Positions 2,846 to 62,361 of a stretch of 64,000 nucleotides of DNA are shown piece after piece (position 1 is the stretch's first letter; each line of letters opens with the position of its first letter). The position numbers and the translations under genes were made by a program. The notes beneath the pieces were generated by a model. That model was given only the letters and a program-made list of their open reading frames with translations, was not told the origin of the DNA and did not search any database. The stretch lies in assembly GCF_055900595.2 (NCBI RefSeq), contig NZ_CM148325.1; one strand, given 5' to 3'.

Positions 2846-2880
2846 AGGCCCGCCGTTCCGGTGGGCCTTGTTTTTTCTCT
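2846..2880 (+). terminator. Hairpin plus T-run after miaB (intrinsic terminator or attenuator before ybeZ)
   Basis: GC-rich inverted repeat aggcccgccgttccggtgggcct followed by tgttttttctct. Confidence 0.5.
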
Positions 2881-7132: not shown

Positions 7133-7160
7133 GGGGCGTGATTATCATGCCCCTTTTTTT
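7133..7160 (+). terminator. Hairpin plus T7 run abutting the stop of the convergent rhomboid-propeller ORF
   Basis: ggggcgtgat / atcatgcccc imperfect stem followed by ttttttt; the T-run overlaps the TAA stop (reverse strand) of ORF 7159..9096. Confidence 0.45.
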
Positions 7161-38020: not shown

Positions 38021-38050
38021 AAAAAACCCGCTTTTTGAAGCGGGTTTTTT
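38021..38050. terminator. Bidirectional intrinsic terminator between convergent lipA and tatE
   Basis: aaaaaa-cccgctttttgaagcggg-tttttt: perfect hairpin flanked by A- and T-runs. Confidence 0.8.
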
Positions 38051-39694: not shown

Positions 39695-39726
39695 CAAAAA
39701 AAACCCGCTGATTAAGCGGGTTTTGA
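39695..39726. terminator. Bidirectional intrinsic terminator between convergent crcB and cspE
   Basis: aaaaaaaa-cccgctgattaagcggg-tttt hairpin with flanking A/T runs. Confidence 0.8.
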
Positions 39727-58013: not shown

Positions 58014-58220
58014 AAGGTAATTCATGGGTGGTTGAAATACATTCTTGCTTTTCAACCATTCTAAAAACGCATGAATTGCTTCTTCCCCTCCTGACAACTG
58101 TGTTACTTTAGAAAAACTTAATCCAGAGTTAAGTAATAAAACATAACAAATATAAATAAAACAGTAGAATCATTGATTACAAGAATGATTTATGGAAAAG
58201 ATAATATAACGGAGTATGTT

Positions 58221-59123
58221 ATGGCTAATCTTTATGATTTAAAAAAATTCGACCTCAATTTACTGGTCATATTTGAGTGCATTTATCAACACCTCAGCAT
58301 TAGCAAAGCAGCAGAATCATTATATATAACGCCATCTGCCGTTAGTCAGTCGTTACAACGTTTACGCGCGCAATTTAATGACCCGTTATTCATCCGCTCA
58401 GGGAAAGGTATCGCGCCGACTACAACAGGGTTAAATCTGCATCACCATCTTGAGAAAAATCTCCGAGGCCTTGAACAAACGATCAATATCGTTAATAAGT
58501 CTGAGCTGAAGAAAAATTTTATTATCTACGGTCCTCAGCTTATTTCTTGTAGTAATAACAACATGCTAATCCGCTGTCTAAGACAAGATACTTCAATCGA
58601 TATAGAATGCCATGACATACTGCTTTCAGCTGAAAACGCTGAAGAATTGTTAGTTCAACGCAAAGCTGACCTGGCAATTACACTGCAACCAGTAATTAGC
58701 CGCTCTGTCATCTGCATGCCGGTACATACTATTCGCAATTCTCTTATATGTAGCAACAAACATCCTCGTATTACCGATACCAGTAACTATGAACAAATTA
58801 TCGCCGAAGAATTCACCTTGTTGATATCTAAATCAGCAGGGATTGACGAAATTCAAATGGACATAGATGAACGTTTTATGAACCGTAAAGTTTCATTTCG
58901 CAGTTCTTCTTTGTTGACGATAATTAATAGTATTTCTGTTACTGACTTATTGGGCATTGTGCCCACCGAACTGTACGATTTACATCGTGATTTTTTGAAG
59001 TTACAAGAGATAAAACTGGAACGACCACTTCCTACGGTTAAACTTTATATTTCCTATAACAAGGCTTCGTTGAACAACCTTGTCTTCTCACGATTCATAG
59101 ATCGTTTAAATGATAGCTTCTGA
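58221..59123 (+). CDS. ybdO: LysR-family transcriptional regulator
   Basis: 300 aa from the ATG at 58221; HTH LNLLVIFECIYQHLSISKAAESLYITPSAVSQSLQRLR; low-GC, AT-rich codon usage. Confidence 0.85.
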   Translation: MANLYDLKKFDLNLLVIFECIYQHLSISKAAESLYITPSAVSQSLQRLRAQFNDPLFIRSGKGIAPTTTGLNLHHHLEKNLRGLEQTINIVNKSELKKNFIIYGPQLISCSNNNMLIRCLRQDTSIDIECHDILLSAENAEELLVQRKADLAITLQPVISRSVICMPVHTIRNSLICSNKHPRITDTSNYEQIIAEEFTLLISKSAGIDEIQMDIDERFMNRKVSFRSSSLLTIINSISVTDLLGIVPTELYDLHRDFLKLQEIKLERPLPTVKLYISYNKASLNNLVFSRFIDRLNDSF

Positions 59124-59269
59124 TTTATTACCACGGATAAATGTTATATTACGCATCAATTGATTCATTGTGTGAATATAAAATAATGTGCTCTATCTTG
59201 CTTCGTTTACCCTATAATTAGCGGATTCATCTCACAAGTCACCCAGTAACGTTCAGAGAGCGTTTTCAG

Positions 59270-60490
59270 ATGTCTATTTATAAAATCCCTCTTCCGCTGA
59301 ATATTTTAGAAGCTGCACAGGAACGTATTACCTGGACACTTAACACATTGCCCCGTGTTTGCGTTTCTTTTTCGAGGGGTAAAGATTCCGGATTAATGCT
59401 GCATCTTACCGCCGAACTTGCCAGAAAATTGGGAAAAAAAATCTGCGTTTTGTTTATCGACTGGGAAGCACAGTTCTCTTGTACCATCGACTATGTACAG
59501 TCGTTACGCGAGTTGTATACCGACGTTATTGAAGAGTTTTACTGGGTAGCACTCCCACTCAAGACGCAAAATTCCCTTTCACAATACCAACCAGAATGGC
59601 AGTGCTGGGAATCTGATGTCGAATGGGTGCGTCAGCCCCCGCAAGAAGCGATAACCGATCCTGACTTTTTCTCCTTTTACCAGCCAGGCATGACCTTCGA
59701 ACAATTTGTACGTGAGTTTGCCGAATGGTTTTCACAAAAACGTCCGGCGGCGATGATGATCGGCATCCGTGCGGATGAGTCCTACAACCGTTTTGTCGCC
59801 ATCGCCAGTTTAAGTAAACAACGTTTTGCCGATGATAAGCCCTGGACCACAGCCGCACCAGGCGGTCACAGCTGGTACATTTACCCCATCTACGACTGGA
59901 AAGTAGCTGATATCTGGACCTGGTATGCTAATCATAAATCCCTATGTAACCCATTGTATAATATCATGTATCAGGCAGGCGTTCCCCTGCGTCATATGCG
60001 AATTTGCGAACCTTTTGGCCCGGAGCAACGGCAAGGATTATGGCTCTATCACGTTATCGAACCGGATCGCTGGGCTGCTATGTGCGCACGAGTTAGCGGG
60101 GTAAAAAGTGGCGGCATTTACGCCGGACATGACAATCATTTTTATGGTCATCGGAAAATCCTCAAACCAGAGCATTTAGACTGGCAAGAGTATGCATTAT
60201 TGCTGCTTGATAGCATGCCGGAGAAAACGGCTGAGCATTACCGCAACAAAATTGCCATTTACTTGCATTGGTATCAGAAAAAAGGTGTCGAGGTGCCACA
60301 GACCCAGCACGGGGACATTGGCGCGAAAGATATCCCCTCCTGGCGGCGAATTTGCAAGGTGTTACTGAATAACGATTACTGGTGTCGGGCATTATCATTT
60401 AGCCCAACCAAAGCGAAGAATTATCAGCGTTATAACGAACGGATAAAAGTAAAACGTCAGGAGTGGGGAATACTATGCAACAACAATTAA
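59270..60490 (+). CDS. ybdN: PAPS-reductase-like (PP-loop ATP pyrophosphatase superfamily) protein with C-terminal extension
   Basis: 406 aa; PP-loop-type motif SFSRGKDSG near the N-terminus. Confidence 0.85.
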   Translation: MSIYKIPLPLNILEAAQERITWTLNTLPRVCVSFSRGKDSGLMLHLTAELARKLGKKICVLFIDWEAQFSCTIDYVQSLRELYTDVIEEFYWVALPLKTQNSLSQYQPEWQCWESDVEWVRQPPQEAITDPDFFSFYQPGMTFEQFVREFAEWFSQKRPAAMMIGIRADESYNRFVAIASLSKQRFADDKPWTTAAPGGHSWYIYPIYDWKVADIWTWYANHKSLCNPLYNIMYQAGVPLRHMRICEPFGPEQRQGLWLYHVIEPDRWAAMCARVSGVKSGGIYAGHDNHFYGHRKILKPEHLDWQEYALLLLDSMPEKTAEHYRNKIAIYLHWYQKKGVEVPQTQHGDIGAKDIPSWRRICKVLLNNDYWCRALSFSPTKAKNYQRYNERIKVKRQEWGILCNNN

Positions 60491-61092
60491 CGCAGGATTT
60501 AACCCAATTTCTCGCCAGCTTGCCGGAAGACGATCGCATCAAAGCGATTAACGAAATCCGCCTGGCGATCCATCAGGTTAGCCCCTTTCGTGAAGAGCCA
60601 GTAGATTGTGTTCTGTGGGTTAAAAACAGCCAACTTATGCCAAATGATTACAACCCAAACAATGTGGCACCGCCCGAGAAAAAACTGTTACAAAAATCCA
60701 TTGAGATAGATGGTTTTACCCAACCTATTGTGGTCACGCACACAGATAAAAATGCTCTGGAAATCGTGGATGGCTTTCACCGTCATGAAATTGGTAAAGG
60801 CTCTAACACGTTAAAAATGCGATTAAAAGGATATTTACCGGTCACCTGTCTGGAAGGAACACGTAACGAACGCATCGCCGCGACTATTCGTCATAACCGC
60901 GCTCGTGGACGCCACCAAATTACAGCCATGTCAGAAATCGTTCGTGAACTCAGCCAGTTAGGATGGGACGACAATAAAATCGGCAAAGAGCTGGGTATGG
61001 ACAGCGACGAAGTGTTGCGCCTGAAACAAATTAACGGCCTGCAAGAGTTATTTGCTGACCGTCAATATTCCCGCGCCTGGACAGTAAAATAA
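60463..61092 (+). CDS. ybdM: ParB/Srx-like domain protein
   Basis: 209 aa; overlaps the ybdN 3' end by 28 nt; Arg-rich ParB-like region (ATIRHNRARGRHQ); start may instead be the internal ATG at 60475. Confidence 0.8.
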   Translation: MGNTMQQQLTQDLTQFLASLPEDDRIKAINEIRLAIHQVSPFREEPVDCVLWVKNSQLMPNDYNPNNVAPPEKKLLQKSIEIDGFTQPIVVTHTDKNALEIVDGFHRHEIGKGSNTLKMRLKGYLPVTCLEGTRNERIAATIRHNRARGRHQITAMSEIVRELSQLGWDDNKIGKELGMDSDEVLRLKQINGLQELFADRQYSRAWTVK

Positions 61093-62253
61093 TTACAGCT
61101 GGCGCAGGCGTTCAGCTGCCGCCAGCAACGTCGATTCCTTCTTGGCAAAACAGAGACGAATGAGCTTATGGGGGAAGGGATCGGCGCAAAATACCGACAG
61201 CGGGATCGCCGCCACGCCATGCTCCCGCGTCAGCCACTGGCAAAACTCAACGTCATCCAGCGAAGAAACCGCGCTGTAATCCACCAGCAAAAAGTAAGTG
61301 CCTTCGCACGGTAAAATCTCCAGCCGACTCTCACTTAAGGCGTTCACCAGAATATCGCGCTTCTGGCGATAAAAGTCCGGTAACGCAAGGTAGTGTTCAG
61401 GTTCTGCTCGCAGCATATCGGCAAGGGCCAGCTGCGCCGGGGTATTCACCGAAAAAGTCAGATACTGATGCACTTTGCGGATCTCGGCGCTGATGGGCGC
61501 AGGCGCAACGCAATAGCCCACTTTCCAGCCGGTCATATGATAGGTCTTGCCAAACGATGACACCGCCACCGCCCGCTCACGCAGTTGCGGATGCGCCAGC
61601 ACACTGGCATGGCCCTGCTGTGAAAAGTTGATATGCTCGTAAACTTCATCGCTAATGACAAAAATCTCGTGCCCGGCAATTGCCTGCCACAAAGCGGAAA
61701 AATCAGTCTGCTGCCAGACAGTAGCACTGGGGTTATGCGGGGTGTTAAGGATCACCAGTCGGGTGCGCTCGCTTAACAATGCGGCAAATTCCTGCCAGTC
61801 CACGCGAAAATGCGGTGGTTGCAGTGCAATACGTTTCACTATTCCACCCGCAAGCGTGATGGCGGGGGCGTAACTGTCATAGCTGGGATCAAAGCAAATC
61901 ACTTCATCGCCATTGCGCACCAATGCAGTAATCGCTGCGTACAGCGCTTCCGTCGCCCCTGCTGTTACGGTGATATCGCTGTCGGCATCTGGTTGATAGC
62001 CATACAGCCGTTCCGTTTTCTGAACAATCGCCTCGCGCAAGGCCTGCACGCCGGTCATGGGTGCGTATTGGTTTGCTCCGTGGGCAACGTGGTACGCCAG
62101 CCGTTCCTGCAAATAGCGCGGACCATCAAAATCAGGAAAGCCTTGCGACAGGTTAATCGCCTGGTGTTGCTGCGCCAGTGCGCTCATCTGGGTGAAAATA
62201 GTGGTGCCAAGTTGTGGAAGTTTGCTTTGTGGAATCAGAGGGTTATTTGTCAT
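61093..62253 (-). CDS. ybdL: Methionine-oxo-acid aminotransferase (PLP-dependent, class I)
   Basis: 386 aa from the ATG at 62253 (MTNNPLIPQSKLPQLG); PLP-Lys context SSFGKTYHMTGWKVG. Confidence 0.9.
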   Translation of the reverse strand: MTNNPLIPQSKLPQLGTTIFTQMSALAQQHQAINLSQGFPDFDGPRYLQERLAYHVAHGANQYAPMTGVQALREAIVQKTERLYGYQPDADSDITVTAGATEALYAAITALVRNGDEVICFDPSYDSYAPAITLAGGIVKRIALQPPHFRVDWQEFAALLSERTRLVILNTPHNPSATVWQQTDFSALWQAIAGHEIFVISDEVYEHINFSQQGHASVLAHPQLRERAVAVSSFGKTYHMTGWKVGYCVAPAPISAEIRKVHQYLTFSVNTPAQLALADMLRAEPEHYLALPDFYRQKRDILVNALSESRLEILPCEGTYFLLVDYSAVSSLDDVEFCQWLTREHGVAAIPLSVFCADPFPHKLIRLCFAKKESTLLAAAERLRQL

Positions 62254-62361
62254 TTTTATTGTGCCTGACAAAGTTGCGTGTTGAAGCCACTATAACACGA
62301 TGCTAGTATTTGGCAATCAAGACGTTTAGATGTCTAAATAAAACAATAAGGACAACACAAC

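Follow-up and report, generated by a model that had tools for sequence, protein, structure and literature searches.

A conserved, strand-biased stem-loop inside ybdM as a candidate 3'-end element of the abutting convergent gene ybdL

Genes and features at the ybdL–ybdM junction

The window—the whole stretch of 64,000 nt that was analysed—carries ybdM and ybdL as adjacent genes on opposite strands with their 3' ends facing each other, which is the gene order of a convergent excludon (Table 1). The upstream partner of ybdM is ybdN, which lies on the same strand and overlaps the start of ybdM by 28 nt. The PGAP product name for ybdL is methionine-oxo-acid transaminase, and residues 1–386 of the 386 residues of YbdL align to the solved structure of E. 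coli YbdL, PDB 1U08. YbdM features a weak match to Pfam ParB_N (24.2 bits, below the cutoff of 26.3), and its C-terminus ...AWTVK, directly followed by the stop, is kept in all enterobacterial orthologs examined.

The window letters 61084–61101 read gta aaa TAA TTA cag ctg, and the TTA at 61093–61095 is the reverse complement of the TAA stop of ybdL. That the stops of ybdM and ybdL abut without a spacer, as a preliminary description of this DNA had reported, is confirmed by the window letters, by the ORF list and by PGAP, in whose annotation ybdM and ybdL are immediate neighbours; this holds for a complete genome with 100% identity to the window as well as for a K-12-like one. In the gene table of K-12 MG1655, ybdL spans 632809..633969 and ybdM 633970..634599, so the gap is 0 there, too. 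Both ORFs are real genes and the positions of their stops therefore leave no room for another annotation; re-annotation of either stop, which would undo the abutment, finds no footing, both stops being solid. Overlapping genes, with at least one nucleotide in both CDSs, are not what is found at ybdM/ybdL, where the gap is exactly 0. The zero gap itself is already part of the public annotation.

Table 1. Features at and around the ybdL–ybdM junction (positions in the window)
Feature	Position	Strand	Basis and remarks
ybdN	59270..60490	+	ORF list, PGAP, Pfam; PAPS-reductase-like plus DUF3440
ybdM CDS	60463..61092	+	ORF list and PGAP; 209 aa, IbrB-like; stop TAA at 61090–61092
C-rich, G-poor stretch	60933..61052	-	C/G 1.6–1.8; +41 to +160 past the ybdL stop; candidate Rho loading region
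U-rich run UUUGUUUCAGG (UUGAUUUGCUU in Enterobacter)	61020..61030	-	Directly 3' of the stem-loop
Conserved stem-loop	61031..61065	-	Folding, recoding, alignment; proposed ybdL mRNA 3'-end element
Junction hexamer TAATTA	61090..61095		Two stop codons back to back, gap 0
ybdL CDS	61093..62253	-	ORF list, PGAP, Pfam Aminotran_1_2; 386 aa methionine aminotransferase
Second hairpin GCUGGCG...CGCCAGC	61098..61126	-	Within the last 10 ybdL codons; then UGUAAUUAUUUUAC across the junction
C-rich, G-poor stretch	61213..61332	+	C/G 1.35–2.0; +121 to +240 past the ybdM stop, antisense to ybdL; candidate Rho loading region

Conservation of the zero gap

The zero gap is real, yet ordinary rather than exceptional. 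The 11 convergent pairs of the window have gaps of 0, 9, 9, 40, 41, 53, 59, 69, 100, 121 and 154 nt, and among the 4,131 adjacent gene pairs of E. coli, 75 convergent pairs have truly overlapping CDSs (Huvet and Stumpf 2014, PMC4161906). The ybdL–ybdM pair resembles these overlapping pairs in being arranged tail to tail with no spacer; however, no coding nucleotide is shared between the two genes, and it is the ybdM CDS that would be shared with the 3' UTR of ybdL.

Conservation was followed across species with YbdM, each represented by a single genome; this sample yielded 57 loci. The convergent ybdL–ybdM arrangement is represented by 34 species from Escherichia, Citrobacter, Enterobacter, Lelliottia, Huaxiibacter, Klebsiella and Superficieibacter as well as one MAG. 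In 32 of these 34 species representatives, and in the window and the K-12-like genome in addition, the gap is exactly 0 while the stop codons vary. The hexamer at the 34 zero-gap junctions is TAATCA in 11, TAACTA in nine, TAATTA, TAGCTA and TAGTCA in four each, and TAGTTA in two cases. As the hexamer differs freely among species, the palindrome TAATTA was rejected as a meaningful motif: it is palindromic because both genes use TAA.

The two remaining representatives, both Citrobacter, carry a clean 13-nt insertion precisely between the ybdM and ybdL stops, so insertions at the junction are tolerated but rare. A plausible history is that the CDSs of ybdL and ybdM were joined stop to stop in an ancestor of Escherichia, Citrobacter, Enterobacter and Klebsiella. 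From then on the junction would have been frozen, since a deletion at this place costs C-terminal residues or a stop and only one bond accepts an insertion without harm. The conservation of the junction thus appears to reflect a ratchet, not selection for abutment.

A stem-loop on the ybdL strand within ybdM

The RNA of the minus strand features a stem-loop that is antisense to the ybdM codons I-N-G-L-Q-E-L-F-A-D-R-Q and lies 27–62 nt past the ybdL stop. Its conserved core helix is formed by 61054–61064 paired with 61032–61042, and the stem-loop is followed by UUUGUUU. With its stem starting 27 nt past the ybdL stop, the structure should be out of reach of the terminating ribosome, given what is established about ribosome coverage at stop codons. 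The minus-strand fold has a free energy of -16.2 kcal/mol and a z of -3.13, and 1 of 200 shuffles folds equally well. In the window, an A-rich run upstream of the stem can additionally pair with the U-run, resulting in an extended fold of -27 kcal/mol (z -3.75). The conservation of this outer helix (GCGC/GCGC, A-run/U-run) is loose, and it was rejected as a conserved part of the element. A search of Rfam gave no significant match for the stem-loop; the best E-value is 1.5, far below the gathering score.

The structure is biased toward one strand. The plus-strand fold of the same region has a z of -0.50 in the window, and in the K-12-like genome the z is -3.14 on the minus strand versus -0.65 on the plus strand. 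This bias arises because a G.U pair of the minus strand becomes a C.A mismatch on the opposite one: at two positions of the stem the minus strand has G.U, in 34 of 35 and 21 of 35 sequences, respectively. Being strong on one strand only, the stem-loop is not bidirectional, and a bidirectional terminator is not what is found here, with a plus-strand z of -0.5, a poor tail and a best plus-strand terminator score d of -16.8.

Conservation of the stem-loop and synonymous constraint in ybdM

Almost every genus has the stem-loop at an equivalent position. Against synonymous recodings of the 12 YbdM codons (median p 0.0075), the minus-strand fold comes out as the more stable one in 31 of 34 species; in 31 of 34, too, the minus strand is more stable than the plus strand. 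These species are related, which makes the counts non-independent. The fold is weak in the Klebsiella oxytoca group, at -9.5 to -10.1 kcal/mol. In an alignment of 36 sequences, 86.7% of the cells are paired, versus 19–56% if the partners are slid against each other. Two stem pairs feature double changes, namely U-A/U-G/C-G at one and A-U/G-U/G-C at the other. The covariation is modest (1 of 500 shuffles attains its score), and conserved amino acids constrain the majority of stem positions as well.

A scan of synonymous divergence along ybdM, made without reference to structure, finds its minimum in the 12-codon window QINGLQELFADR / INGLQELFADRQ, with a value of 0.32 versus 0.51 overall. The amino-acid-normalised ratio of observed to expected divergence (O/E) of this window is 0.686, which ranks 1st of 198; the permutation P is 0.034 for any window and 0.0006 for this one as prespecified. 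The codons of the stem are frozen: Leu is encoded by CTG only and Asp by GAC only, Asn is almost always AAC, Arg is CGT or CGC, and Gly is GGC or GGT. The loop codons are free to vary, with O/E of 1.0–1.5. Among 13 distant YbdM homologs with the protein motif ...TGLAELFADR..., 12 are without the hairpin.

These patterns bear on the simplest alternative, in which nothing at or near the junction has a function: the zero gap would be a frozen accident, transcripts would read through until stopped by Rho or by chance, and the hairpin would follow from codon preference, amino acids and ancestry. Such an account gains from the modest covariation and from the fact that zero or negative convergent gaps are common. 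GAC is the minority Asp codon in E. coli, and codon preference leaves the invariance of this rarer codon unexplained. Equally unexplained are the frozen stem codons beside variable loop codons, the strand-specific fold and the missing hairpin in distant homologs with the same motif.

Loci without ybdL

In seven genomes, ybdL and hcxA are deleted, and ybdD-cstA faces ybdM instead. The hairpin is gone in two Citrobacter (L015, L046), and in three further genomes (L009, L010, L012) it is weaker and its strand bias is reversed. Two Trabulsiella keep the hairpin; one of them has ybdD 10 nt from ybdM, and Trabulsiella odontotermitis keeps it with no convergent gene nearby. After the loss of ybdL, codons that are otherwise invariant are altered, GAC to GGT or AAT and CTG to CTT—a further change for which an absence of function at the junction offers no explanation. 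The recoding test is passed by 32 of 35 genomes with a neighbour within 13 nt, versus 2 of 6 with the neighbour at 42 nt or more (Fisher p 0.0045, uncorrected for phylogeny). In the spacers of the ybdL-less Citrobacter, a replacement terminator was looked for and only borderline sites were found, none of them obvious.

Alternatively, the inverted repeat might work on the plus strand, in the ybdM mRNA, or at the level of double-stranded DNA; the ParB-like YbdM could, for instance, bind it within its own gene. parS sites do sit inside some parB genes, and YbdM features the weak ParB_N match. The repeat is by nature present on both strands, its plus-strand fold beats synonymous recodings in 14 of 34 species, and its plus-strand version is stronger in the ybdL-less Citrobacter. 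However, the plus-strand fold is near background in the window and the K-12-like genome (z -0.5 and -0.65), and the G.U stem positions (34/35 and 21/35) read C.A on the other strand and break the palindrome in DNA. Translating ribosomes, moreover, would be expected to melt a hairpin located 27 nt upstream of the ybdM stop. An action on the plus strand or in the DNA is accordingly regarded as very improbable.

Terminator scores and mapped 3' ends

Hairpins with a U-tail were scored by d, in the form of d'Aubenton-Carafa, recalibrated empirically on the window. Terminators at gene ends of the window (citT, ahpF, uspG, ahpC, cspE, lipA/tatE, dacA, crcB, dcuC, rnk, ybeL) score d of 9–63. The stem-loop at 61031–61065 is borderline, with d of 3.6 (rank 43 of 3437); among its orthologs, d runs from -13 to +6. 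The tail score T of UUUGUUUCAGG is 4.41 and ranges from 3.3 to 4.5 in other species; those of the gene-end terminators of the window are mostly 4.0–6.0, with a lowest value of 3.5. A simple promoter and terminator scan, whose counts match the shuffled expectation, calls no terminator at the junction; it missed the stem-loop because the loop is larger than 8 nt.

Compared with intrinsic terminators, the ybdL-strand element shares a stable stem-loop followed by a U-rich run, 27–70 nt past the stop. It differs by a longer stem, a larger loop of 7–11 nt, a lower GC content, an interrupted U-run and the borderline score, and it lies wholly inside a CDS. On both strands taken together (128 kb), d is at least 0 at 54 sites, of which 18 are near gene ends. 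The score of the stem-loop falls in this background zone, which fits an absence of function, as do the weak expression of ybdL and ybdM—both have low read counts in the tables of a p19 dsRNA study—and the lack of a mapped 3' end: neither gene has a row, and no coordinate 6347xx or 6348xx occurs, in the eLife 2021 Term-seq and TERMITe tables. Weighed against the codon, strand and gene-loss patterns above, an absence of function is considered unlikely, if still worth reckoning with.

The end of ybdM and the second hairpin

Nothing comparable to the stem-loop serves ybdM. In the window, no terminator-like plus-strand site occurs within 150 nt past the ybdM stop, the best d being the value of -16.8 given above. 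A plus-strand terminator for ybdM was rejected across the sample as well, none being present within 150 nt in most species (median background fraction 0.47). The Klebsiella oxytoca group is the exception and features a good plus-strand site 48 nt into antisense ybdL, with d of 11–15. Elsewhere, ybdM probably relies on Rho. A Rho-dependent end is likely because the read-through RNA is untranslated, antisense to ybdL and furnished with a C-rich, G-poor stretch. Both C-rich stretches of Table 1 are defined by the composition of 80-nt windows only; the one on the minus strand starts within the stem-loop and continues just 3' of it.

A second hairpin is located at the very end of the ybdL CDS. At -17 kcal/mol it ranks within the top ~1% of its own mRNA's windows, and it is strong in E. 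coli-like lineages only, being absent from E. albertii, Citrobacter and Klebsiella. Tested against synonymous recoding, it yields a median p of 0.235 across 32 species, and the last 12 codons of ybdL show no synonymous constraint (O/E 0.92, rank 110 of 375). In the window its d is -5.4 (rank 83 of 3437); the K-12-like genome gives 5.0 and strain SCPM 15.1. As a conserved element it was rejected: it is lineage-limited and unconstrained, has a d of -5.4 in the window and would be covered by the ribosome at termination. The second hairpin is probably incidental or auxiliary, and it may contribute in E. coli proper, where d ranges from 5.0 to 15.1.

Overlapping transcription and comparison with known systems

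The absence of a spacer means that any transcript covering either stop is antisense to the other gene. Overlapping 3' transcription, which the preliminary description had expected from the abutting stops, agrees with published data: in the main text of the ExcludonFinder study (NAR 2025, PMC12288877), ybdL–ybdM is among 165 convergent excludons of E. coli MG1655, whose transcripts overlap in no fewer than 50% of 58 RNA-seq sets. According to the same text, 146 of the 165 pairs have predicted terminators that lie within the neighbour. The present locus is thus the same pair with the same 3' overlap, and embedded terminators are argued for there too; the main text of PMC12288877 lists the pair without an element, position, structure or conservation, and the lineage of the window is ~92–93% identical to typical E. 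coli. The transcript overlap is real; its regulatory weight is only putative.

In a regulatory excludon, the two genes would repress each other via polymerase collision or RNase III, and the stem-loop would position head-on collisions as a bidirectional terminator element. The published listing (PMC12288877, main text) and the synteny of the pair across genera are compatible with such a role, and stem-loops are reportedly needed to position the collisions of convergent genes (preprint 10.1101/2022.10.23.513370). The same preprint, however, reports that collision-based termination works best for highly expressed pairs, and both genes have low read counts in the p19 dsRNA tables. In Salmonella, ybdL and ybdM reportedly shift in the same direction (PMC11481890). 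No reciprocal expression data were found for the pair. Antisense interference at ybdL–ybdM, as put forward in the preliminary description, is a possibility; mutual repression organised by the stem-loop is rated as quite improbable.

Stable stem-loops with a C-rich, G-poor region downstream are described for Rho-dependent ends by Dar and Sorek 2018 (PMC6061677). The ybdL-strand element resembles the protective stem-loops described there in being without a strong U-tract and in having, as judged by composition only, a C-rich, G-poor region directly downstream. It differs from the ends in PMC6061677 by the moderate U-run at the stem-loop, and Rho dependence and exonuclease trimming are hypothetical at ybdL. 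The embedded hairpin belongs to known kinds, namely terminators or protective stem-loops within the neighbouring transcription unit. While neither the zero gap nor the overlap of transcripts is new, no description of an embedded 3'-end hairpin at ybdL–ybdM was found in the literature consulted; judged from sequence comparison, it would be a modest new detail with good comparative support.

Proposed 3' end of ybdL and its implications

Taken together, the observed junction, its conservation, the structure with its strand bias and the synonymous constraint point to a stem-loop that makes or protects the 3' end of ybdL. That the stem-loop is a ybdL 3'-end element embedded in ybdM is given about an even chance of being correct. 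In this proposal, ybdL would have an ordinary 3' UTR of ~70 nt that is the antisense of the last ~24 ybdM codons, and the stem-loop together with the U-rich run would set the end of the ybdL mRNA ~70 nt past the stop. Two versions are conceivable: the stem-loop and the U-run may act as a weak intrinsic terminator, or the stem-loop may resist exonucleases and so define the end of a ybdL transcript terminated by Rho. The latter version fits because of the C-rich, G-poor stretch just downstream (C/G 1.6–1.8). Transcripts of ybdM would run into antisense ybdL and be stopped there by Rho.

The conclusion that abutting stops leave no room for terminators is not supported, since 3'-end signals need no non-coding DNA, and a conserved, strand-specific stem-loop with a U-rich run is present 27–62 nt past the ybdL stop. 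The stem codons would be frozen because ybdM has to encode both a protein tail and an RNA structure. The last third of ybdM would accordingly be dual-coded, for its protein tail and for the ybdL 3'-end hairpin of the opposite strand—a constraint that would shape synonymous codons across several genera and relax after the loss of ybdL. Confidence in this dual coding is evenly poised.

The locus would show where a 3'-end signal goes if two genes leave no spacer: the signal can be read from synonymous constraint alone, a strand-specific mark in the partner gene. Analyses of codon usage and dN/dS treat such sites as neutral, which they may not be, and recoding or deletion of ybdM could change the expression of ybdL. 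The pair is in addition an experimentally tractable case for asking if selection maintains the embedded terminators of tight convergent pairs or if these are incidental. If true, the proposal would make ybdL–ybdM a clean case from nature in which purifying selection keeps a transcript-end signal in a neighbour's CDS.

Tight convergent junctions in the window

The hcxA/ybdD pair, which adjoins ybdL/ybdM, is likewise convergent and narrowly spaced (Table), and ybdD-hcxA is also among the published convergent excludons of E. coli MG1655, i.e., convergent pairs with overlapping transcripts (PMC12288877). Because a 9-nt gap lies next to the abutting stops of ybdL and ybdM, cstA-ybdD-hcxA-ybdL-ybdM is a stretch in which genes on alternating strands meet at one very narrow junction after another. 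A second convergent pair of the same spacing, ybeT/djlB, has the layout of ybdL/ybdM: window-wide terminator scoring places a minus-strand terminator-like hairpin within the ybeT coding sequence, so that a putative 3' signal would be embedded in the partner gene. At its upstream end, ybdM overlaps ybdN. The annotated start of ybdM is a GTG, and use of the alternative in-frame ATG at 60475 would still leave an overlap of 16 nt.

Terminator-like hairpins elsewhere

The convergent pairs lipA/tatE and crcB/cspE each share a textbook bidirectional terminator whose hairpin scores well on either strand; these two serve as positive controls for what ybdM/ybdL is without. Two very high-scoring terminator-like hairpins lie within coding sequence, one on the sense strand of corC and one antisense to ubiF.

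Features of the window and of ybdM loci of other species (d, hairpin-plus-U-tail terminator score calibrated on the window; L numbers, ybdM loci of other species)
Feature	Position	Strand	Remark
hcxA/ybdD convergent pair	hcxA ends 63450, ybdD stop 63460	hcxA +, ybdD -	9-nt gap
ybeT/djlB convergent pair	ybeT ends 18385, djlB stop 18395	ybeT +, djlB -	9-nt gap
Hairpin in ybeT	18380 to 18350	-	d 5.4; 45 nt beyond djlB stop
ybdN/ybdM overlap	60463-60490	same strand	28 nt
lipA/tatE terminator	38027-38044	both	
crcB/cspE terminator	39704-39720	both	
Hairpin in corC	7133-7153	+	GGGGCGUGAUUAUCAUGCCCC; d 50
Hairpin antisense to ubiF	2847-2867	+	d 50.5
13-nt insertion CGAAATCACGTCA	L011 3131-3143		Citrobacter; exactly between both stop codons
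13-nt insertion CGAAATCGCGTCA	L014 3131-3143		Citrobacter; exactly between both stop codons
Hairpin CAGCCAGC...GCUGGCUG, then UUUGG	about 27-48 nt beyond ybdM stop, L032, L034, L036	+	within antisense ybdL; d 11-15

Variation of the ybdL/ybdM junction and hairpin

Across the 34 species in which ybdL converges on ybdM, the insertions in two Citrobacter loci are the sole exceptions to a gap of 0. Escherichia albertii NBRC 107761 (L007) carries an in-frame stop in ybdM (…CVL*VKN…) at the position of a Trp in other species, and by its sequence the gene looks like a pseudogene; junction and hairpin are both kept despite this stop. The Klebsiella oxytoca group (L032, L034, L036) features a weak minus-strand hairpin in ybdM and, in addition, a plus-strand hairpin beyond the ybdM stop whose score falls among those of real terminators. 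The layout in this group may be a mirror image.

In two further loci (L009, L010), the initial ~60 nt beyond the ybdM stop look like a degenerate relic of the 3' end of ybdL (…GCGTTCAGCCGCTGACAGCAGC…). As ybdL and hcxA are otherwise deleted, ybdM is now faced by ybdD-cstA. In E. coli strain IR53017 (hit H15; NZ_CP064103.1 3701353-3701969), the match is limited to the distal third of the query (60400-62300), and a truncated aminotransferase gene adjoins pagP. This arrangement points to the loss, by deletion or rearrangement, of ybdM through the genes toward pagP.

Divergence of the window

In the segment comprising citR/ybdO, a LysR-type regulator gene, and its flanks (58150-59400), GC content is low (33-39%) and identity with K-12-like E. 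coli amounts to only 72-84%, compared with about 91-97% for the remaining locus; citR/ybdO is far more diverged than the neighboring genes. The query 60400-62300 has matches in 5,420 E. coli genomes; identity is at least 99% in only 18 of these and 90-95% in all the rest. For the 5.6-kb locus, none of the genomes that represent species in the collection exceeds about 89% identity. Because of these two results, the window is assigned to a divergent lineage of Escherichia that is uncommon and is catalogued under E. coli.
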